Shown: positions 1 through 36,295 of the stretch, piece by piece
How positions within the stretch are numbered: the stretch's first letter is position 1
Layout: every line of letters starts with the position of its first letter
DNA from: a virus
Taxonomy: Duplodnaviria; Heunggongvirae; Uroviricota; Caudoviricetes
DNA length: 37,319 bases
Direction: 5' to 3' (one strand)
Virus record (IMG/VR): IMGVR_UViG_2645727743_000020
Coordinates: 1 to 37,319 of that record
Position numbers and translations under genes: made by a program
The notes under the pieces: model-generated
What the model was told of the DNA's origin: nothing
What the model saw: only the letters and a program-made list of their open reading frames with translations
Databases searched by the model: none

Positions 1-141
1 TTACTGCTTACACTGTAAGAACGCCGCAAACTCCGCTCCCCAGAAGCTCATCCGTATTTCACACAGCGAACCGTGCAACATCCAGATGATGAGGATTGCC
101 GTCACGCAGAACGTGATGGCCGTAAGCGATTTTTGCGACAT
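1..141 (-). CDS. hok: Hok/Gef-family type I toxin (46 aa small membrane peptide)
   Basis: ATG at 141, TAA at 1..3; AAGGAG SD about 9 nt upstream; product MSQKSLTAITFCVTAILIIWMLHGSLCEIRMSFWGAEFAAFLQCKQ has an N-terminal TM helix and the SLCEIR / E-x-AAF motifs conserved in Hok and Gef; too short for the ORF track (<60 aa). Confidence 0.6.
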   Translation of the reverse strand: MSQKSLTAITFCVTAILIIWMLHGSLCEIRMSFWGAEFAAFLQCKQ

Positions 142-904: not shown

Positions 905-1462
905 TCAGATTAGGGCTATCTGCTGATTATTTAGCTTCTCCAATCTTTCAGACAGTTTTATCTTATCTTCAACTTTTTCCAGCGATGATGCTGACATAAA
1001 GCTAATCAGCTTATCAATATCTTTAGGTTCTTTGATAAGAACAAACTCCCTTGTCTTATTAATGAAAACAGCTGAGTTTTTCTTTCTTGATAGCAACTCA
1101 ATGACGTTGCTCAGTGTTCCCGGACTTTTTGTATCCCAAACCATAAGGCCACAGTCTGCTGTTTCTGCCATCTTTATATCTTTGGCTGTGTAGAAATCTC
1201 GAGTTCCGGGTCGGAAGTTTGATTTAACGAGTTTCACGGGCCATGCACCAAAATTGTTTCGTGGCTTGGCATCACTAGTGAACACAGTGGTTGCGCTATA
1301 ACCCAATTGTTTTAGTTCCAGCTGTACGGAAGAGTCAACGCCAGAGGCGTCACCGACGATAACATTAAAGTTCTTGTCAACAATCTTCTTTAAGCGCTCA
1401 ACGATAAGCGGGTCGAGCTTTTTAATGGTTATCGAGCCAGCAACGAAAACTGTCGTTGTCAT
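905..1462 (-). CDS. SLOG/DprA-like Rossmann-fold protein, second gene of the PRTase pair (ShosA-like candidate)
   Basis: ATG 1462 with GGAG SD, 2 nt after the PRTase stop; motifs VFVAGS...VIVGDASGVD and SPGTLSNVIELL resemble the glycine-rich loops of DprA/LOG (SLOG superfamily); family assignment is by motif only. Confidence 0.55.
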   Translation of the reverse strand: MTTTVFVAGSITIKKLDPLIVERLKKIVDKNFNVIVGDASGVDSSVQLELKQLGYSATTVFTSDAKPRNNFGAWPVKLVKSNFRPGTRDFYTAKDIKMAETADCGLMVWDTKSPGTLSNVIELLSRKKNSAVFINKTREFVLIKEPKDIDKLISFMSASSLEKVEDKIKLSERLEKLNNQQIALI

Positions 1463-1464
1463 GG

Positions 1465-2052
1465 TTATCTCCAGGTTAGTGCTGCTACATAAATTTTATT
1501 GATTTTATTATAACCGCGTAACGCTGTAACTGCAGCTTCCATGGATGCTCCTGTATGGAAGAGATCATCAACGATGAGGGCATTAAAAGGGCCATCCCCG
1601 ACAATTTGGTTTTGATAAGAAAAAGCGTCAGCAACAGCAGCTTCTTTCTCTTCTTTAGTGTTCAGATTTTTCAAAGACACGCCACCAGGTGCTTTGATTA
1701 ATAACTCATTGAAGCTAAACATGTTATTTCCCATTTTTGATGCCAGAGCGTCAGTAATTGCTGTCACGGGTTGAATTTTTCGAACATTTGAAGCTGCCAT
1801 TGGGATGATTAATTGTATGTTTTGAAAAAGAGGCACAGCATTAACTAATAGGCACTGGGCAAGCGCATCAACTTGGTCCATGTCATTTTGATATTTTAAC
1901 TGGTATACGGCTTCTCCAACCTCCGTGCGATCGTTTTGAAACATAGGCTTGCCATACTCGTTATCACCTAAATAAGTACTCTTAATCAAATGCTTATCCA
2001 TCGCGTAACCTAAATCCCAGTTACCCGTAATTGGCTTGATGTTTACTTTCAC
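1465..2052 (-). CDS. Type I phosphoribosyltransferase-domain protein (ShosT-like candidate)
   Basis: GTG start 2052 with AAGGAAA SD; PRPP-binding signature ALIVDDLFHTGASMEA near the C-terminus; inserted between tail gene D and ogr. Confidence 0.7.
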   Translation of the reverse strand: MKVNIKPITGNWDLGYAMDKHLIKSTYLGDNEYGKPMFQNDRTEVGEAVYQLKYQNDMDQVDALAQCLLVNAVPLFQNIQLIIPMAASNVRKIQPVTAITDALASKMGNNMFSFNELLIKAPGGVSLKNLNTKEEKEAAVADAFSYQNQIVGDGPFNALIVDDLFHTGASMEAAVTALRGYNKINKIYVAALTWR

Positions 2053-25752: not shown

Positions 25753-27957
25753 TTACGTGTCGAGAGAAATTTGTGTGCGCAGTTGAATAGGATTCAGAAT
25801 TGTATATCGCTGGCGAATAACATTATATAAATCAAAGTCTTTTACCCTTACGCTTATTACCATCGCATATTGCATATCAGGGGCTGAAACTCCCTTAACA
25901 TGGCGCGAAGAATCTCGGGCATGATACCGTATATCAAAAACTGGATCGCTTAATAATGTATCAGCACTGAACTTTTTGCTTCTGTGCAAACAAGTTTCCC
26001 ACTTATGACCTTCACTCCTACACTCCCTTTCAGTCTTATACTGGCTTTTTTGACCAAAGAAATCATCTGTATCGGTATCGTCAAGGCCGAATCTTGGGCG
26101 GAAAGTTACCTGCATACCGGCCCTTGTATAGTTTACTGAATGTTCAGGATCTACTGGGGTTTGAATGCATAAAGTAGCGGTAAGCTCAAATGCTTCGTCA
26201 AAGGGAACATCAGGGAATGGGATCGGTGCCCTTAAATATTTATTTTTTGCTAATGAACCATAGTAAATTACTGTAGCAGTATCATTTGGACAATCGATTA
26301 AAACGTTAGGATCCTCACTAAACCGTCCCCAACCGATATGTTCACGCGAATATTTTCTTGATGTTTCAGCATGATGAACAAGCAACGCTTTCAATGCAAT
26401 GGTGTTCAATGGAGTTCCTGATAGAGCCGCAACTCCAGCGGCCGTTCTCAATGCTAATGGAGAGGCATAACTGGTTCCTTGAACTCCAACTATAGAACCA
26501 AGCAGAGGGTTGTAAGTGTAAAAAGGCTCGTCGTCGCTTCCACCAAAAATAACACCATCAGGTTTAACGAATCCGGGGCTTCTGCCTGGCCCAATACAGC
26601 TATATGGTGCCCGCCCCCATTTTTCACCGCTACGATCAGCAGCACCAATCGCTAGCGCGTTTACCATATCGGAAGGAGGTTGTATTCTCGCTGCATCACC
26701 GTCCTCATTGCCATCATTCCCAACAGCAACAGTAAGTAATATCCCATGCTTAGCACAGATTTGGTCTAAAACAGCAGTCCATACATGAACCTCATCATCA
26801 CCAATTGGAAGATGAGGACCAATACTTAGATTAGCGAACTTATAGTCACCACTATCAAGAACGGACTGTATTTTCTTAAGGACATCAAATAAATCCCAAT
26901 TGCCATTGTCACCTGATGTCGGTGAAAGAACTCTATAATGATCTACATTCATAAACGGTCTTTTAAAAGAAGGTGCATTTTCCTCGACACGTCCGAATAA
27001 GAAAGTGGATGTCACTTCATTACCGTGCTGCAATAATAATCCGCTTGTTTCTTTGGTGTCTGGATACACGTATTCCGTAACCCAATTACTCAAGTCAGCT
27101 GTCCCCAAGCCACCATCAAAAATGGCAATACGTTCGGATTCAAGAACAGCTTTAGAATTAGGGAGCTCTGGTGTAACTATATTAGATAACTTTCTGACAA
27201 TGTTCGGCTGAGTACACCTGAGAGACGGCATCGGCCGCACAACGCGGATTAATGAAAAATCGAGTGTTTTTTTCATATCTTCAGGTCGCGCGTGTGCAAC
27301 GATGAAAGTCAGCCCACCAACTTGGATTCTACTTTTGTAATCAACAGAGACATCATATTGTGCCGCATAGCTAATATAGGCTTTAACGATATCATCGTCT
27401 TCAACCCCAGCATGAAGAACCACTTCAAATTTTATCAAATCACTTTTCGCATGCTCAAAATTGCGTGCTCTCTCTTTTCCTTCAAAAAAGCTAACACTTT
27501 CAATTTCGATCAAATCCTTTTGTACGCCCTTCGGAGCTGTAGGGGAATTTAAAATTTCCTTAAATCTTATAACGGCATCATCATCACCGCTAACAAACAG
27601 TTGCGCCGTTACTAAGTCCTTATTCTGATCGCACTGACGTGCCGCTTTCCGTGGGCGAATGATTACCTGACGGCTACCGACATCCCGTAAACCTGTCGCT
27701 CTAAGCAATCCTTCCGGAAAGTAGCTTTTACCCAAAAACGCTGGGTGTAAAGTTAAATTGAATACACTCTCCCCCCTTGGCTTAGCCGCATCATCCAAAC
27801 TGCGAAAGCGTGAGAGTAAAGTATCAATCTCTGGGTTTAAATGCTCCCTTACTTCTTCAAGAGTATAGGGATAGCGCTTACCATCCCTTCCTTTAGGCAA
27901 AGGTTCCTTTTTTGTCAGAACATGACCGTTACCTAAAAGTAAGTTCCTTTCCATCAT
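25753..27957 (-). CDS. S8-family subtilisin-like serine protease with a roughly 270-aa N-terminal domain of unknown function (IetS-like candidate)
   Basis: Catalytic triad motifs in order: IAIFDGG (Asp), HGNEVTS (His), GTSYASPLA (Ser, the GTS-x-A-x-P signature); 734 aa; start overlaps the ATPase stop by 4 nt. Confidence 0.85.
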   Translation of the reverse strand: MMERNLLLGNGHVLTKKEPLPKGRDGKRYPYTLEEVREHLNPEIDTLLSRFRSLDDAAKPRGESVFNLTLHPAFLGKSYFPEGLLRATGLRDVGSRQVIIRPRKAARQCDQNKDLVTAQLFVSGDDDAVIRFKEILNSPTAPKGVQKDLIEIESVSFFEGKERARNFEHAKSDLIKFEVVLHAGVEDDDIVKAYISYAAQYDVSVDYKSRIQVGGLTFIVAHARPEDMKKTLDFSLIRVVRPMPSLRCTQPNIVRKLSNIVTPELPNSKAVLESERIAIFDGGLGTADLSNWVTEYVYPDTKETSGLLLQHGNEVTSTFLFGRVEENAPSFKRPFMNVDHYRVLSPTSGDNGNWDLFDVLKKIQSVLDSGDYKFANLSIGPHLPIGDDEVHVWTAVLDQICAKHGILLTVAVGNDGNEDGDAARIQPPSDMVNALAIGAADRSGEKWGRAPYSCIGPGRSPGFVKPDGVIFGGSDDEPFYTYNPLLGSIVGVQGTSYASPLALRTAAGVAALSGTPLNTIALKALLVHHAETSRKYSREHIGWGRFSEDPNVLIDCPNDTATVIYYGSLAKNKYLRAPIPFPDVPFDEAFELTATLCIQTPVDPEHSVNYTRAGMQVTFRPRFGLDDTDTDDFFGQKSQYKTERECRSEGHKWETCLHRSKKFSADTLLSDPVFDIRYHARDSSRHVKGVSAPDMQYAMVISVRVKDFDLYNVIRQRYTILNPIQLRTQISLDT

Positions 27958-29036
27958 TTAATCCCCCACTTTTGTAATTTATTCGCGATTGTTGGATGTG
28001 AAACACCAACTAATTCAGCTATCTTCCTATTTGAAAAACCGTCAAAATGATATTTAATTATATTGAGATCATTATCGCTAAACTCATCCAATGAAACCCT
28101 CTCCGTAATTACGGCTTCTATTAATGAGCTTTCAAATGGAATATTTCTAAGTACCTCATTCTTTTTGGAGAAATTCAAAATACGGTTAATGATGGCAAAG
28201 GACATGCCATCTAATAATGGTGCAAGTTTTTTAGATAGTTCAGGTTCAATATTATGATTGACTAAATATCTATCTATCAGTTCTACTGATGGCATATTAA
28301 ATTTAAGGATGTGCTCAAATCGACGCCAAACAGCCGGATCTAAGATATCAGGGTGATTAGTCGCAGCAACAAGAAGCGAGGTCGCTGGCCACTCATCTAT
28401 GGTCTGTAGGAGTACAGTAACTAAACGTTTTAATTCTCCAACGTCCCTGTCATCATCACGTCTTTTTGCAACAGCATCAAATTCATCAAGCAAAAGGACA
28501 CATGGTTTCTCTTTGGCATAATCCATAACGGATTTAATATTATTACCTGTTTTTCCCAAAAGAGAACTCATTACAGATGAGAGATCCAATGTTAAAAGAG
28601 GTAAATTTAACTTTGCAGCAAGCCAATGTGCGGACATTGTTTTGCCTACGCCTGGCGGGCCAGAAAGTAAAACCGTCTTCACAGGTTCAAGACCAGCTTT
28701 GAACAAAGAAACCGCATTCTCTCTTTCGTTAACAATTGACTCCAGCTTCTTTGAGATATCCGTATTCCATACAGGTTCTTCAACAATTGCGTTGACAGAT
28801 GTTTCCTGCAAAAGGTTTCGTCTGGAGTCTCCATCCACAGGCATAGGAGCCTTACTAGATGCCCCACGTAATACTGTTCCCTCAGCAACTAACGAAGCCA
28901 GCTTAGAAGCTAAAGCCTCATCATTTTTACGGATGTTGTTAATCATCTTTCTGCATAGGAGTGTAAATGCATTTGCGTTGCCTTTGATGCCTTGCTCGAT
29001 GAGTTTGAAAAGTTCATCCTCCCTCACGTTTACCAT
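27954..29036 (-). CDS. AAA+ ATPase with C-terminal LuxR/sigma-70 region-4-like HTH (IetA-like candidate)
   Basis: Walker A GPPGVGKT, Walker B VLLLDEFD, sensor/arginine-finger ATNHPDILDPAVWRRF; C-terminal NRKIAELVGVSHPTIANKLQKWGI; ATG 29036 with GGGGG SD. Confidence 0.85.
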   Translation of the reverse strand: MVNVREDELFKLIEQGIKGNANAFTLLCRKMINNIRKNDEALASKLASLVAEGTVLRGASSKAPMPVDGDSRRNLLQETSVNAIVEEPVWNTDISKKLESIVNERENAVSLFKAGLEPVKTVLLSGPPGVGKTMSAHWLAAKLNLPLLTLDLSSVMSSLLGKTGNNIKSVMDYAKEKPCVLLLDEFDAVAKRRDDDRDVGELKRLVTVLLQTIDEWPATSLLVAATNHPDILDPAVWRRFEHILKFNMPSVELIDRYLVNHNIEPELSKKLAPLLDGMSFAIINRILNFSKKNEVLRNIPFESSLIEAVITERVSLDEFSDNDLNIIKYHFDGFSNRKIAELVGVSHPTIANKLQKWGIK

Positions 29037-29414
29037 AAAACCCCCAATAAAACATCAGCTTGTGTAAGCTGGTAACTACATTAATGAAAATCATTGACTA
29101 ATGTTACCACTCTTGCTGGCGTAATTCAAAGAGTATCCTCACTTTTTTACTGTATGGATAATCAGCATAAAATCTATCCAGTTGGGTTACTCGAACATAC
29201 TGTCAATACTTGTTTCCAACGATTGATCAGTTCTACAGTTTTATCTCCTTCACTTGTGTTGGCAGCATGCTTATTCCTGAACCAGCTCGATTACTTGGCC
29301 ATTTGAGAAAGATGTGTAGATCTTCTGATGGTTTGTATTGGAACGGGGTGCATAGTGATTTGCACCCCGTTCTTTATGTTATGGGATTGGTGGCAGGGCG
29401 AATACGCCCTGATG

Positions 29415-29726
29415 TTATTCAGGAAATAACGCCCGGATATTTCCGGCCATCTGACTGGTTATCTGTGCGGTTGATACTGGCTGTGACGCGGGGCGTTCTG
29501 TCTTGGTTTGTGTCACTGATAACACCTCATCATCAGCCCATGCAGCCAGTCGGTAAGCCTCTGCCGGATTCATTTTCAGAAGTGCCAGCCCGGCCAGAAA
29601 AGCCACGCGTTGGCCGCTTTTGCGGGCTTCTGGTGTAAGGCTGTCCAGCCAGGCGCATGCTTCTCCTTCGTTCTTGACGGCGGTGGGCTTCAGATAGAAA
29701 CTTATCCGTCTGGTTGGAGTCGTCAT
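29415..29726 (-). CDS. parR: ParR-like centromere-binding adaptor
   Basis: Start ATG 29726, 4 nt after the parM stop with AAGGAG SD; MTTPTRRISFYLKP...LDSLTPEARKSGQRVAFLAGLAL...NIRALFPE parallels R1 ParR (RRTIAFKLNP...LDSIP..ERS..RAALTAGLAL...LRSLFPKE, recalled from memory). Confidence 0.7.
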   Translation of the reverse strand: MTTPTRRISFYLKPTAVKNEGEACAWLDSLTPEARKSGQRVAFLAGLALLKMNPAEAYRLAAWADDEVLSVTQTKTERPASQPVSTAQITSQMAGNIRALFPE

Positions 29727-29730
29727 TGGT

Positions 29731-30690
29731 TTACTCCTTGTCCATTGCGTACAGCCCATTAACCAGAGCAAACTGTGGCACCCCGTCCGCGATGAAAGTC
29801 GCATTAACTCCGCAGGCTTCGCGGATAGCGGGTGCCACAATCTCCGCCCCTCCACCGACAACCATCACCCGCCCGTAACCCGAAAAAACCGCCAGCGCGC
29901 GGATCACGCGTTGTTTCAGTGTTTCTTCCTTTTCACGAATAACCGCCATCAGGCTGGCGTAATGCGCGTCATTGTGGATGTGCTGGCGCAGCCAGGCTTC
30001 ATCATGGCGATGTTCGATAATGGTATTGGCGATGTGGTGACTGGTGCGCATACCGTTAGTGGCCATCACCGACAGTACGGCATCGGCCATCAGAGAAACG
30101 CCTACGTGTGGATCGCAAAACACCTGGCTGATACCTGCCAGTTGCCCCTGAACCTTTGCCACATCCAGCGTGGTTCCGCCCAAATCCACAATCAGCAGGG
30201 ATTCAAACGGACTCATGTCAGCCAGTGCCTTAAAGCCAGCCGGAATGGATTCAGGCATAACCCGCACGTTACGGATAGTGAATGCCTCACCGTTCTGGTA
30301 CTCCACCGGGCGCATAACGTTTGCTTTTTTGCGGTTGATGTTGGCCATGTCCGGCTGGGCGTTAGTGTCGAAATATTCGCTCAGTGGCAGGGTGACAACC
30401 ACATCCACTTCCTGTGGCGTGATGCCTGATTTGACCAGCGCGTGATGAATGGCAATGACATTCACATCGCTGTACTGGTATTGCGTGTCGGTCGTCTGGA
30501 CAAAGCGATCGCTGACCGGATCAAAACCATAGCGCACGCCATCAAGCATGTAGTTCGCAGGCTGCGAGCCACCGAACGGTGCAGACCATTCCGACTTGAA
30601 GCTGTTCGGGCTGATGGCGTTGCGGCGTTCGCCGTTTTCAGTCCATGCCAGCTTGATGTTGGTGGAGCCGTCGTCGATACAAATTTTCAT
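29731..30690 (-). CDS. parM: ParM/StbA-family actin-like segregation ATPase
   Basis: 319 aa; IDDGSTNIKL, ISPNSF, YSDVNV, HHAL, KANVMRPVE, VMPESIPAG, LLIVDLGGTTLD, VVGGGAE, LVNGLY all align with R1 ParM (recalled from memory). Confidence 0.9.
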   Translation of the reverse strand: MKICIDDGSTNIKLAWTENGERRNAISPNSFKSEWSAPFGGSQPANYMLDGVRYGFDPVSDRFVQTTDTQYQYSDVNVIAIHHALVKSGITPQEVDVVVTLPLSEYFDTNAQPDMANINRKKANVMRPVEYQNGEAFTIRNVRVMPESIPAGFKALADMSPFESLLIVDLGGTTLDVAKVQGQLAGISQVFCDPHVGVSLMADAVLSVMATNGMRTSHHIANTIIEHRHDEAWLRQHIHNDAHYASLMAVIREKEETLKQRVIRALAVFSGYGRVMVVGGGAEIVAPAIREACGVNATFIADGVPQFALVNGLYAMDKE

Positions 30691-30725
30691 GTCGATTTTC
30701 CTTATGTTGGTTAATTAACCGTTTA

Positions 30726-30816
30726 CGGGATTTTTAAATCCCGCTTTCGCCTGTTTTGTGCGCGCTTCATATATCGCGGCGCGTTTTTTGCTCATTTGCG
30801 GGATTTGTGAATCCCG
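30726..30816. repeat. Two related palindromes upstream of parM (parC-like centromere/operator candidates)
   Basis: CGGGATTTTTAAATCCCG (30726..30743) and CGGGATTTGTGAATCCCG (30799..30816), each followed by a similar T-rich stretch, within 130 bp of the parM start and overlapping the A 3' end. Confidence 0.45.
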
Positions 30817-33607
30817 TTTCTGTCTGTTTTTTGTTGCCACTGGTCAGGCCACCCCGCAGCAGGTCTGCTTTGCGGCGGGCGCGTTCAGTGGTTTCACTGA
30901 TTCTCTGTGCGTGCTCTGCGTCACGAATGGCGCGCAGCATGTCAGAAAGCACGGTAACGGGTGTTTTCATGGTGTTCTGGTCCTGCTGAAGTGTGGATGC
31001 CAGGCGTGCGGCGGCTTCGGGGTCTGATGCCCCGAGCTGTGCCAGATAGCTGGCGACCGGGTTATGGCGGATCTCCGTGCTGCTTACGCCGTGATTACGG
31101 CTCAGGCGCTGCCAGAGCTGCGTGATTCGGCTGTCCGGGCGGGTATCCGGTTTGCGTACAATTTCAAATCCCTGCGGTGCAATGATGCTGCCGTCAACGT
31201 ACAGGCTGCCGCCCCGTAACAGGTGCTGCATCTGCTGTTCACCGATATGCAGGCCGAGAGATTCGGCAGACTCCCGCCATTCTTTAGCGAGTAATTCGTG
31301 GTTATCAGGCAAAGGCTGTGGCTGTTTGCGGCTCTGTGTCCAGTTCTGCATTTCATCACTGCTGTTTTTGGCCTGTTTGTCACGCAGCGAACGCATCAGT
31401 GCCCGGCGTTCGTGCCGTTTCAGTGAGCGCATCCATTCATTCACTTCAATGCCGTCAGGGAGCTGCGGCCACGGTGCTGGCCGTTCTTCCGGCTGTTCTG
31501 TCCCGTTGTTGTCCGTTTCCTGTACACGGGGACAGTTATTGCCACGAGTCCAAGGGGCGGCAGGGCCGCCCTGAAGGTCAAAACCATTTTCGTGGGCGTT
31601 GTCTTCCGGTTCTGGTTTACGTCTTACCAGCTTCCAGTTATCCGGATGCGTGCACACACGGGAGGATTCCCCGATGAGTGGTGACCAGATTCCGTAAATC
31701 TGTACGCTCTGTTCGCCGTAATCGTTCAGCTCATCTGCGAGGTCGTAGGCGGTGCGAATCAGGTAGTCCTTGCGTGGAACAAGCACGCCACCCTGTTTTT
31801 CAATGTAGGTGGCAAAACATCCGGCATCAGCGGCAGCGAGTACCGCATCCATTGCGTCATCCTTCAGCCGTTGCGGGCCTTCCGGGTTGCGTGCCATCTG
31901 GCTGGCAAGGCGGCGCAGTTCACGCCACACCTGACGGGAGGGGATACCAAAGAACTGGAACTGGCGGACCCGGTGAAGGCGCGCCCAGCCGATGGCGCGT
32001 TCCACGCTCTCGGCCATTGATTTTCCGGTTTCGTGGTCAACGCGTGGCTTGCCCGTTTTCGGGTCGATGCCATCCACGGCGCGGCTGTCCAGGTTTTTTC
32101 CGATGTAGGTCGCGATATAGCTGGTTGGTGTGCCTTTTGAGCCGTCGACATACTCCACCTTAAAGCGCGGAGTAATATCATTGCCCAGCTCGTGGCGGTC
32201 TTCCTGAATGGCAATATCGCGGGTGATGGCCACGATGCTGTCGATTTCTTCCGGATGAGCAAAGACCATCATATGCCAGTGCACGGTGCCGTCATGGTGA
32301 GGCTCCACCGTGCGGATGCCATACCAGCGCAGACCGTCGCGGTTCAGTTTTTTGCGGACTGCCGCAAAAAACGTGTTAACCAGGTAATCGCTGGAGTCGC
32401 GCATGGTGGCCCCGTTCCATTTGGGATTCGGATGACCGTTCTCTGTTGTGGCGTGGTATTTTGACGGGCAGGTGACAGTCAGAAACACCGCTCTGTCGCC
32501 ACGGGCTTCGGCCAGAAGTTCCAGCCCCCTCATGGTGGCCATCATTTCTGCCTTACGGTGAACCGGGTTACTTACTCCCGCGTAATACACTGTCTCGAGA
32601 TCAATCGTGAACCCGTCTTCGTTTTCCAGCATGAAACTTTTCAGGAAATCGCGTGTTTTCTCGCGCTGCGCGCGAAACTCGCTTAATGCGTCCTGACTCA
32701 GATAGGGCGATGTTTTTCTGGAAACCAGACAGGCGGCGCGGAGTTGTTCTTCCCGCCACTCGCAACGTAACAGCCACAGTTTGCGTTTCCACCATTCCGC
32801 ACAGGTCAGGCGAAGGATTGCGCCCGGCAGCAGCTCCGTGTCCGGTTCGTTCCTCCGGTCTTTGTCTGTTGTCAGTGCGTCATAATGTGGAGGCATGGCG
32901 TGCAGGTGTAACGCCATGCGGGCCAGCATCTGATACGCCTTCAGCGTTACATCCATGGTCAGCTCGCCATCAGTCGCGCCAAAGCTATCGCAGAGTTTTT
33001 CGAAGGTGCTGCTGAACATCGCCGCCGTCATGGTGGCCAGCGTCTGTATCTGGTGTTTGTTGAGCTGCGGCAGGTAAAGCAAATCGTCCAGGCGTTCGCG
33101 TCCGGTAAGGGAGCGATAACCCGGTGTCAGCCAGCGGTGATCGGTGCGTTCCAGGCGTTCGAATATTTTGCGCAGGTTTCCGCGCGCGTAGCGTTCAGCC
33201 TGCCAGCTCTTTTTGCCTTTCTGACGATCGGATTCCTGTTTTTTGCGCAGGAAAGAGAGGTGGCGGCTCAGAGGTTCACGCAGATAAACGGGAAGCACTT
33301 TCAGTGTGGCAAAAGCACGGGCCACCGGGTCTTGTTCTGTTGCCTGACGCTTGCTGATGATGCTTTGTGCCAGCTTTTCACGCTGTCCGGCTTCCTCAAG
33401 GGATGCCATGAGTTTTTTACCCACGGTGGATTGTGCGAAAAAGGCTTCCTCCTTCGCTTCCTGTTCTTCCAGGGCCTTTTTGTCTGCCTCAAGGTAGTAA
33501 CGGATGGCGCGTTGCAGGTCGGTTTCAGTTTCCTGCCTGTGCTCCGTAAATCTGGCCGGATCAATGGCTGGTCGTGGTTCATTCCAGCTCCATGCAAACT
33601 CACTCAT
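30767..33607 (-). CDS. A: Replication initiation protein A (rolling-circle nickase family)
   Basis: 946 aa from ATG 33607 (ATGA overlap with the upstream ORF); longer than P2 gpA (about 761 aa). Confidence 0.85.
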   Translation of the reverse strand: MSEFAWSWNEPRPAIDPARFTEHRQETETDLQRAIRYYLEADKKALEEQEAKEEAFFAQSTVGKKLMASLEEAGQREKLAQSIISKRQATEQDPVARAFATLKVLPVYLREPLSRHLSFLRKKQESDRQKGKKSWQAERYARGNLRKIFERLERTDHRWLTPGYRSLTGRERLDDLLYLPQLNKHQIQTLATMTAAMFSSTFEKLCDSFGATDGELTMDVTLKAYQMLARMALHLHAMPPHYDALTTDKDRRNEPDTELLPGAILRLTCAEWWKRKLWLLRCEWREEQLRAACLVSRKTSPYLSQDALSEFRAQREKTRDFLKSFMLENEDGFTIDLETVYYAGVSNPVHRKAEMMATMRGLELLAEARGDRAVFLTVTCPSKYHATTENGHPNPKWNGATMRDSSDYLVNTFFAAVRKKLNRDGLRWYGIRTVEPHHDGTVHWHMMVFAHPEEIDSIVAITRDIAIQEDRHELGNDITPRFKVEYVDGSKGTPTSYIATYIGKNLDSRAVDGIDPKTGKPRVDHETGKSMAESVERAIGWARLHRVRQFQFFGIPSRQVWRELRRLASQMARNPEGPQRLKDDAMDAVLAAADAGCFATYIEKQGGVLVPRKDYLIRTAYDLADELNDYGEQSVQIYGIWSPLIGESSRVCTHPDNWKLVRRKPEPEDNAHENGFDLQGGPAAPWTRGNNCPRVQETDNNGTEQPEERPAPWPQLPDGIEVNEWMRSLKRHERRALMRSLRDKQAKNSSDEMQNWTQSRKQPQPLPDNHELLAKEWRESAESLGLHIGEQQMQHLLRGGSLYVDGSIIAPQGFEIVRKPDTRPDSRITQLWQRLSRNHGVSSTEIRHNPVASYLAQLGASDPEAAARLASTLQQDQNTMKTPVTVLSDMLRAIRDAEHAQRISETTERARRKADLLRGGLTSGNKKQTETGFTNPANEQKTRRDI

Positions 33608-33993
33608 GGCTGGTATCCCGTCACGCGCTGCCACTCCTGCAAGAAGATGGTGGAAAGGCGGTTAAATTCAGCGGTGTATTCACTCAGCGAGACACACCCG
33701 CCAGCAGTGCGATGCGCCAGCATTGCCGCAAATACGGAGGCCGGGGAGTCGTAATACGCCAGCAGTGATTCGCCGTGCGGTGTCAGGCAGTGCAACGCCA
33801 GTCCGTGTGGTGTGAAGTCCACGCGGTAGCAGTCGTCTACTGTGAAATAAAGGGTATCCACATTCTCCGGTTTTGTGGTGCGTGCTCTGTTGTCACGACC
33901 ACGAATGTAGAGATCAAATAATCCCCGAAGAATGGGAGCCAGACGGGTGTCCTGTGTGCGCACCCATCTTGTGAAGTCATGAGCGTCAATCAT
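33604..33993 (-). CDS. Hypothetical early protein (129 aa) translationally coupled to A
   Basis: ATG 33993; stop overlaps A start; no recognisable motif. Confidence 0.55.
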   Translation of the reverse strand: MIDAHDFTRWVRTQDTRLAPILRGLFDLYIRGRDNRARTTKPENVDTLYFTVDDCYRVDFTPHGLALHCLTPHGESLLAYYDSPASVFAAMLAHRTAGGCVSLSEYTAEFNRLSTIFLQEWQRVTGYQP

Positions 33994-35928: not shown

Positions 35929-35973
35929 CTAAAAGTCGTCTCTAGGCGACTTTTAGGGTTAATTTAGTCGTCT
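35929..35973. promoter_or_regulatory. Operator/promoter repeats of the C versus early-operon switch region
   Basis: Inverted repeat CTAAAAGTCG-N8-CGACTTTTAG (35929..35956) and direct repeat AGTCGTCT at 35934..35941 and 35966..35973, in the 91-bp divergent region. Confidence 0.45.
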
Positions 35974-35983
35974 GGAGACCACC

Positions 35984-36295
35984 ATGTCAAGTGGGTACGA
36001 AAAAAAACTGAAAGAGATACGGAAAAGTGAAGGGTTAACTCAAGCTGAGTTTGCAGATGTTACTGGGATAAATCTCGGAACTATAAAGAATTATGAGAGC
36101 GGTAAAAGAGAGGTTGGTTTAAGCGTTGTTGATCGCGTAATTAATTCTAAGGATTTCGAAAAATACACTATATGGCTTATGACGGGAAAAACAAATGAGG
36201 CTGCTGGGCAGATCAGTCCCTCTCTCTCCCCTGATGGGCCAGAAAACACATCGTCTTCTCAAAAATCCCGCAAGACTGGTACACAGCCCGGCTAA
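35984..36295 (+). CDS. C: Immunity repressor C
   Basis: 103 aa; central motif KYTIWLMTGKTNEAAGQISPSL and C-terminal SQKSRKTG parallel P2 C as I recall it (...FTKYTLWFMT...SGQIAP...GQKTG). Confidence 0.8.
   Translation: MSSGYEKKLKEIRKSEGLTQAEFADVTGINLGTIKNYESGKREVGLSVVDRVINSKDFEKYTIWLMTGKTNEAAGQISPSLSPDGPENTSSSQKSRKTGTQPG

Follow-up and report, generated by a model that had tools for sequence, protein, structure and literature searches.

The 37,319-nt stretch of DNA analyzed here (IMG/VR virus record IMGVR_UViG_2645727743_000020, positions 1 to 37,319; termed the window) is a P88-like E. coli prophage of the genus Xuanwuvirus, family Peduoviridae. It carries two adjacent genes, parM and parR, which their family matches identify as bona fide type II partition genes in an integrative P2-like prophage. 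Both genes have kept intact reading frames under purifying selection and accompany the P88-type replication gene A; they are part of the P88-like core genome and have come close to fixation in that lineage. The observation is genuine, the gene pair is very probably functional, and a pair of palindromes upstream of parM is a candidate centromere. We favor, at about even chances, a role in which the partition proteins keep a transient phage episome in both daughter cells until integration, re-integration or lysis. The presence of the module is already known (it has been annotated and commented on), and only its role in an integrating phage is a matter of proposal here.

Architecture and conservation of ParM and ParR

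In profile hidden Markov model searches with the Pfam StbA and ParR models, both proteins match. ParM possesses the two domains of its family, StbA_N (residues 1-157) and the ParM C-terminal domain (residues 159-316), with E values of 2.1e-82 and 6.3e-69, respectively, and matches the structures of R1 ParM (PDB 1mwk, E value of 6e-93). It shares 47% identity with R1-type ParM, and the nucleotide-binding motifs IDDGST, MPESIPAG, DLGGTTLD and GGGAE are all intact, which bears out the signature blocks of R1 ParM that the initial annotation had noticed in this 319-residue protein. The family corresponds to PHROG 691, labeled "partition protein". Among the related loci, parM is a 319-residue open reading frame (ORF) in 85 of 85, and a mean pairwise ratio of nonsynonymous to synonymous substitution rates (dN/dS) of 0.06 indicates strong purifying selection.

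The start codon of parR (ATG at 29726) lies 4 nt past the stop codon of parM (29731-29733). This small gene, previously described as ParR-like, indeed matches the Pfam family PF10784 Plasmid_stab_B (the ParR/StbB family) with an E value of 6.7e-24, and its family corresponds to PHROG 2515, also labeled "partition protein". A single-sequence search against the PDB sequences gave no match, and pB171 ParR (PDB 2jd3) was reached by profile only, as the best solved relative of a profile built from ParR and 25 homologues (E value of 0.015). The same profile aligned with the R1-type and R621a ParRs at an hhalign probability of 97%.

ParR consists of a conserved N-terminal domain (residues 1-65), a hypervariable linker (residues 66-92) and a conserved C-terminal motif, NIRALFPE. 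The first 14 residues (MTTPTRRISFYLKP) are invariant in nearly all 85 loci and across the allele groups that share the upstream palindromes. The C-terminal motif, with the general form N-I-R/Q-x-L/F-F-P-E, is predicted to be helical and aligns with the extreme C-terminus of the plasmid ParRs, where its counterparts are NIKNLFPDDE in R621a and NAMKLIN in the R1 type. In plasmid ParRs, the C-terminus is the ParM-binding end. The domain layout thus appears to be that of a working adaptor. The ParR monomer was predicted by AlphaFold2 at low confidence, with a predicted local distance difference test score (pLDDT) of 58.6 overall and below 50 for residues 65-86; the helical N-terminus of this model is uninformative, since ribbon-helix-helix proteins fold as dimers. 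Of the 85 loci, 83 encode a full-length ParR, the other two being a 79-residue ORF that ends at a stop codon and a copy cut by the end of the fetched sequence, and the mean pairwise dN/dS over codons 1-65 is 0.27.

The parR gene falls into at least two allele groups that are ~55% identical and sit beside a nearly identical parM (loci L002, L009 and others). These groups show a recombination breakpoint near codon 18, and the synonymous divergence (dS) reaches 1.29 in parR, compared to 0.20 at most in parM.

The repeat element upstream of parM and its transcriptional context

The initial annotation had placed two related palindromes upstream of parM, at the 3' end of A. Both are present, and each lies within one copy of a 39-nt direct repeat, the two copies of which are 73 bp apart and contain one 18-bp palindrome each (Table 1). 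The spacer between A and parM measures 76 bp, and the stop codon of A occupies 30767-30769. The proximal palindrome, CGGGATTT-TT-AAATCCCG, is exact, in keeping with the shorter of the two arm spacings given before (N2 or N3). The distal palindrome, CGGGATTTGTGAATCCCG, has either 7-bp arms around four nucleotides or arms around two nucleotides with one mismatch. For the exact palindrome pattern of the initial annotation, no chance match is expected; CGGGAT-N6-ATCCCG occurs at these two sites only in the 37-kb window, and a motif search of the phage found no further copies beyond weak, chance-level matches. The duplication of 39 nt gives rise to similar peptides in the C-terminus of A (..TGFTNP..) and in an overlapping 41-residue ORF (..AGFKNP..; 30715-30840, minus strand). 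One related locus out of 83 has apparently lost the 73 bp that separate the repeats.

The two units, each of which combines an A-rich tract with a palindrome, and the core GGGAT-N6-ATCCC are conserved in relatives from E. coli, Salmonella and Hafnia. This conservation was read from variant tables, as column-wise diversity is distorted by a few loci with indels. In the Hafnia relative, whose ParM and ParR are 94% and 72% identical to those of the window, respectively, the 73-bp spacing and the cores are kept, whereas the spacer and the C-terminus of A have diverged. The distal palindrome of this relative contains the stop codon of A, and coding constraint alone is therefore insufficient to explain the conservation. 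No covariation was found between the palindrome variants and the ParR allele groups. Altogether, the position, uniqueness and conservation of the palindromes suggest that ParR may bind them.

The initial annotation had described a complete ParMRC module. We found parM, parR and a conserved two-palindrome cis element at the expected position, but neither an iteron periodicity nor a promoter-like site. The upstream element, which has two units and no tandem iterons, is not a canonical parC and can be termed a candidate parC only.

An autoregulated promoter within parC, as expected earlier, does not emerge from the sequence: a scan of 29200-31200 gave no sigma-70-like site (a simple consensus scan, and hence weak evidence), and A contains one chance-level site only. 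The same scanner did find a candidate early promoter of the cox...A-parM-parR operon far upstream. From this promoter to parR, the genes are tightly packed on one strand; no minus-strand terminator was found in the A-parM interval, and each of the two partition genes has a good Shine-Dalgarno sequence. Because promoter and terminator are missing between A and parM, an early promoter is found upstream and the genes are tightly packed, parM and parR are probably distal genes of the early operon, expressed by readthrough. Their expression would be shut off in the repressed prophage and would take place while the phage genome is outside the chromosome. The candidate early promoter is adjoined by an inverted repeat with a 12-bp stem (35929-35956), between the cox-like and C genes, which is probably a repressor-controlled switch region.

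Table 1. Coordinates of the partition module and associated features in the window
Feature	Position	Strand	Description
hok-family toxin ORF	1..141	-	46 residues with SLCEIR; NCBIfam HokA 2e-8, below the curated cut-off
parR	29415..29726	-	putative centromere-binding adaptor, 103 residues; supported by Pfam, hhalign, PDB profile and PHROG
parM	29731..30690	-	actin-like segregation ATPase, 319 residues; supported by Pfam, PDB, motifs, selection and PHROG
parM leader	30691..30721	-	Shine-Dalgarno sequence AAGGAA; no sigma-70-like promoter
Proximal 39-nt repeat unit	30722..30760	-	A-rich tract and palindrome 30726-30743, in the A-parM spacer; candidate centromere half-site
Distal 39-nt repeat unit	30795..30833	-	palindrome 30799-30816, within the last 22 codons of A; candidate centromere half-site
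Gene A	30767..33634	-	P2-type rolling-circle replication endonuclease, directly upstream of parM; Pfam Phage_GPA 2.7e-130; probable source of parMR transcription
Candidate early promoter	35961..35990	-	TTGACA-18-TAAATT, of the cox...A-parM-parR operon

Distribution and origin of the module

Nucleotide identity between the window and P88 is 91-97% over most of its length, two cargo regions excepted, and the gene order is the same. The A-parM-parR arrangement is found in 14 of 14 Xuanwuvirus phage records, including P88, P884B11, 520873, 503458, PhiR44_2, Chuche, 569R5, 705R2 and Citrobacter phiSM. Across these records, the 1.6-kb parMR region shows 94-97% nucleotide identity and ParM at least 95% amino acid identity; the genes are already labeled ParM or partition protein, and the order portal, variable cargo, parR, parM and A is constant. 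Outside the genus, the picture differs. Among 50,697 phage records, ParM of this type occurs in Xuanwuvirus and, at 48% identity, in the P1-like phage-plasmid D6 only, and the same search found it absent from the other Peduoviridae (P2, 186 and the relatives of Fels-2). Similarity to Fels-2, SopEPhi and the Klebsiella and Yersinia phages, also of the Peduoviridae, is limited to the central 1.3 kb of A, at ~64% identity, and these phages lack ParM. The earlier remark that partition genes are not standard P2 cargo hence holds for P2, 186 and the Fels-2 relatives, but not for Xuanwuvirus, in which the module is standard, annotated and already discussed. Pfeifer et al. 2021 (PMC7969092) noted the partition genes of P88, placed P88 among the putative phage-plasmids and suggested episomal as well as integrative states. 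The original P88 paper leaves the module unmentioned, and no functional study of P88-like parMR was found in the literature searched.

Of 5426 complete E. coli genomes, 1308 contain the parMR region, which occupies 1454 places on chromosomes and 2 on plasmids. The P88-type A gene (at least 90% identity) was found in ~1385 E. coli records and parMR in ~1309, from which near-fixation in the lineage follows. An identical 1.6-kb region is carried by E. coli strain VG35A2, in a prophage integrated beside yhbY. A pattern scan of genome contigs for ParR returned three loci only, one of them in a probably contaminated Vagococcus assembly: NZ_JBQPOM010000071.1, labeled "Vagococcus sp." (a Gram-positive), has an A-parM-parR segment nearly identical to the E. 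coli copies, which probably reflects contamination of the assembly.

With int, C and the hok-family ORF present as claimed, the initial annotation had proposed that the element sits in a plasmid or replicates as a phage-plasmid. The complete genomes give this little support. Phage-plasmids are extrachromosomal and usually lack an integrase, whereas here an integrase is present and 1454 of the 1456 places are chromosomal, including the best-matching copy beside yhbY. One circular exception speaks for the proposal: NZ_CP148288.1, from an E. coli isolate from a cat, is a complete circular P88-like genome of 34,461 bp deposited as plasmid pZ1323PEC0009-2, and it is the only phage-sized circle found among 72,556 plasmid records.

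Three accounts of the origin of parMR were rejected. Recent capture from a plasmid is ruled out by the distance to plasmid homologues and by base composition. In the 72,556 plasmids, matches of at least 99% are prophage copies only; the genuine plasmid ParMs among the 5000 best-scoring records listed are all less than 60% identical, the best (IncL/M and IncI-gamma/K) reaching ~52%. ParR is 25-28% identical to plasmid ParRs and has no tblastn match in genuine plasmids. The G+C content of parMR (52-55%) equals that of the phage backbone, compared to 38-45% in the adjacent cargo. The earlier idea of captured plasmid stability modules can thus stand for the distant past only, given this divergence, the backbone composition and the near-fixation. 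Variable hot-spot cargo is likewise ruled out, as parMR is conserved in all relatives, has backbone G+C, and the variable AT-rich region begins just past the parR stop codon. Pseudogene decay is excluded by the low dN/dS of parM and by its intact reading frame in all 85 related loci.

The boundary of the hot spot is marked by two G+C-rich hairpins just 3' of parR (29394-29411 and 29340-29373), and homology to other P88-like phages ends at 29373, 29394, 29415 and 29420, coinciding with them. Between the portal gene and parR, the minus strand carries an anti-phage defense pair, IetA (an AAA ATPase, 27954-29036) and IetS (an S8 peptidase, 25753-27957), with 38-45% G+C; other P88-like phages carry different genes at that spot. 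A second variable cargo region (905-2052, minus strand), absent from P88 and from the circular copy, encodes a 185-residue protein without a family match and a 195-residue phosphoribosyltransferase-like protein with a weak match to PsyrT (1e-7). The hok gene has been annotated in P88 as well as in the circular record that was deposited as a plasmid, and is thus co-conserved. Sok RNA was not detected in the whole window with Rfam at gathering thresholds, a scan that gave no matches at all.

Proposed role and comparison with known systems

In the reading that we favor, parM and parR, as the last genes of the early operon, would be made only in the absence of the C repressor, a situation that arises upon infection or once an induced prophage has excised, with the genome present as a free circle. 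ParR dimers would bind the two conserved units of ~40 bp upstream of parM, with their GGGAT-N6-ATCCC palindromes 73 bp apart, and the C-terminal NIRALFPE helix of ParR would capture the growing ends of ATP-bound ParM filaments. The filaments would then push phage circles apart or position them, such that each daughter retains a copy until integration, re-integration or lysis, and Hok would kill cells that lose the element. We put forward more tentatively, as a proposal that falls short of being probable, that P88-like phages may segregate non-integrated circles by means of ParMR and a non-canonical two-palindrome centromere, giving rise to a heritable episomal (pseudolysogenic) phase before integration or after excision. 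In that case, ParMR would represent the first active partition system demonstrated in an integrating tailed phage of enterobacteria, and the two palindromes a new minimal kind of type II centromere.

Several points weigh against the favored role and the centromere that it employs. Lytic replication of the P2 type produces numerous genome copies in each cell, a situation in which partition brings little benefit. To our knowledge, an element of two units without tandem iterons is unlike every characterized parC. In a periodicity test, the parC regions of the R1-type, IncI-gamma and IncL/M plasmids gave strong signals at 10-11 bp (z of 3.7-4.8), whereas the upstream region of the phage gave none, its only signal being at a lag of 73 (z of 4.7). 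In approximately a quarter of the copies, one arm of the proximal palindrome has a C replaced by T, and the absence of a promoter near parM was read from a simple consensus scan. In addition, the circular record deposited as a plasmid may be merely an excised, replicating phage genome caught by the assembler.

The palindromes might have no centromere function at all, serving instead as operators of another phage regulator (for example, a winged-helix or MarR-like early protein) or as a structure in the mRNA governing the termination of A or the translation of parM, with ParR binding elsewhere or nowhere. Helix-turn-helix dimers typically have palindromes of 18-20 bp as their sites, and the known ParRs bind direct iterons; moreover, the RNA of 30680-30850 folds well (z of -4.0) by pairing both palindromes, and the plus-strand versions score as weak terminators. 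However, no compensatory changes backing the RNA helix were found and common variants break its pairs, the motif appears nowhere else in the phage, and its place immediately 5' of parM is the one that all type II centromeres occupy. The spacing of ~73 bp between the two blocks also echoes plasmid parC regions, which have weak signals at lags of 72-74. We therefore consider this explanation improbable.

Among the other roles, positioning of phage DNA during the lytic cycle is unlikely but deserves the most attention: ParR-anchored ParM filaments would move or spread replicating phage DNA, to the membrane or away from the nucleoid, for replication or packaging, in the manner of AlpC/AlpA and with no part in inheritance by daughters. 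The placement of parMR directly after the replication gene A in the early operon, without a promoter of its own, would suit such a role, as would the precedent of prophage CGP3, in which the alpAC genes are induced early, their products bind repeats upstream of the alpAC operon, and their loss halves the phage DNA copy number (PMC4446434). Yet ParM is close (47-52%) to the true plasmid-segregating ParMs and is not a divergent Alp, the conservation of hok alongside it suggests that losing the element matters, and other P2-like phages replicate well without the module. A true dual lifestyle, in which long-term maintenance as a low-copy plasmid by ParMRC and Hok/Sok is an alternative to integration, would accord with the phage-plasmid class and the two states proposed for P88 (PMC7969092), with the circular 34.5-kb NZ_CP148288.1 and with the presence of both R1-type stability functions, par and hok. 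It has little probability in our view, given the almost exclusively chromosomal places in complete E. coli genomes, the single phage-sized circle in the plasmid records, an integrase and attachment site that are always present, and an A protein that is a rolling-circle initiator without known copy-number control. That the module is a decaying relic, or a weapon that disturbs the partition of competing ParMRC plasmids, is very improbable. Partition-mediated incompatibility is established for plasmids and the module sits at the edge of a defense-gene hot spot; nevertheless, decay conflicts with the purifying selection and the 85 intact copies of parM, both ParR and the cis site are too far from their plasmid counterparts for cross-reaction to be expected, and the module is conserved while the neighboring cargo varies.

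The gene pair is a lineage-defining trait of a prophage type that ranks among the commonest in E. coli (about a quarter of the sequenced strains have P88-like phages), and not an exotic capture in one prophage. If retention of the transient episome is its role, partition would affect the efficiency with which lysogeny is established and kept, and hence the spread of the defense systems carried, such as IetAS here. The module would also offer a natural, compact two-site centromere for the study of ParR-ParM segrosome assembly.

Compared to the plasmid systems parMRC of R1/NR1 (also stbAB or the parA locus), IncI-gamma/K (R621a) and IncL/M, the phage module has the same order of parM followed by parR, a ParM of 47-52% identity with all ATPase motifs, a ParR with a homologous N-terminal domain (hhalign 97%) and the C-terminal motif N-I/A-x-x-L-F/I, and a cis element directly upstream of parM in two blocks ~73 bp apart. 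It differs in being chromosomally integrated, in having two palindrome units in place of tandem 10-11 bp iterons and no promoter between the blocks, and in a shorter ParR of 103 residues with a hypervariable linker (116-147 residues in plasmid ParRs). The ParM and ParR of P88 ("StbA") and other Xuanwuvirus phages represent the same module in the same place between A and the cargo hot spot; nothing essential is different, and the present copy is distinguished by a ParR allele variant of its own and by the neighboring IetAS cargo. The StbA-type partition system of the P1-like phage-plasmid D6 has a ParM of 48% identity, and its annotation in D6 already reads "similar to phage P88 StbA protein". 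D6, however, is a true plasmid prophage without integration, and its upstream repeats are direct TCTCA-type units.

Two systems of integrating elements with established functions complete the comparison. The AlpC/AlpA/alpS system of the Corynebacterium glutamicum prophage CGP3 is induced early after excision (Donovan et al. 2015, PMC4446434). It differs from the module of the window in that its actin, AlpC, is a divergent Alp encoded after the adaptor, and the role is in replication efficiency and membrane targeting, not segregation. The srpMRC system was shown experimentally to stabilize excised SXT/R391, such that partition matters in the excised state only (Carraro et al. 2015, PMC4489591). 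SrpM is distant from R1 ParM, SrpR has no recognizable ParR domain, and the carrier is an integrative and conjugative element, not a phage, whereas the role of parMR here is read from sequence. Despite these differences, both are type II partition systems on an integrating element with a rolling-circle initiator, accompanied by a toxin-antitoxin system in SXT/R391 and by a hok-family gene here, and srpMRC is expressed only together with the excision and replication genes, a logic that the one proposed for parMR would match.

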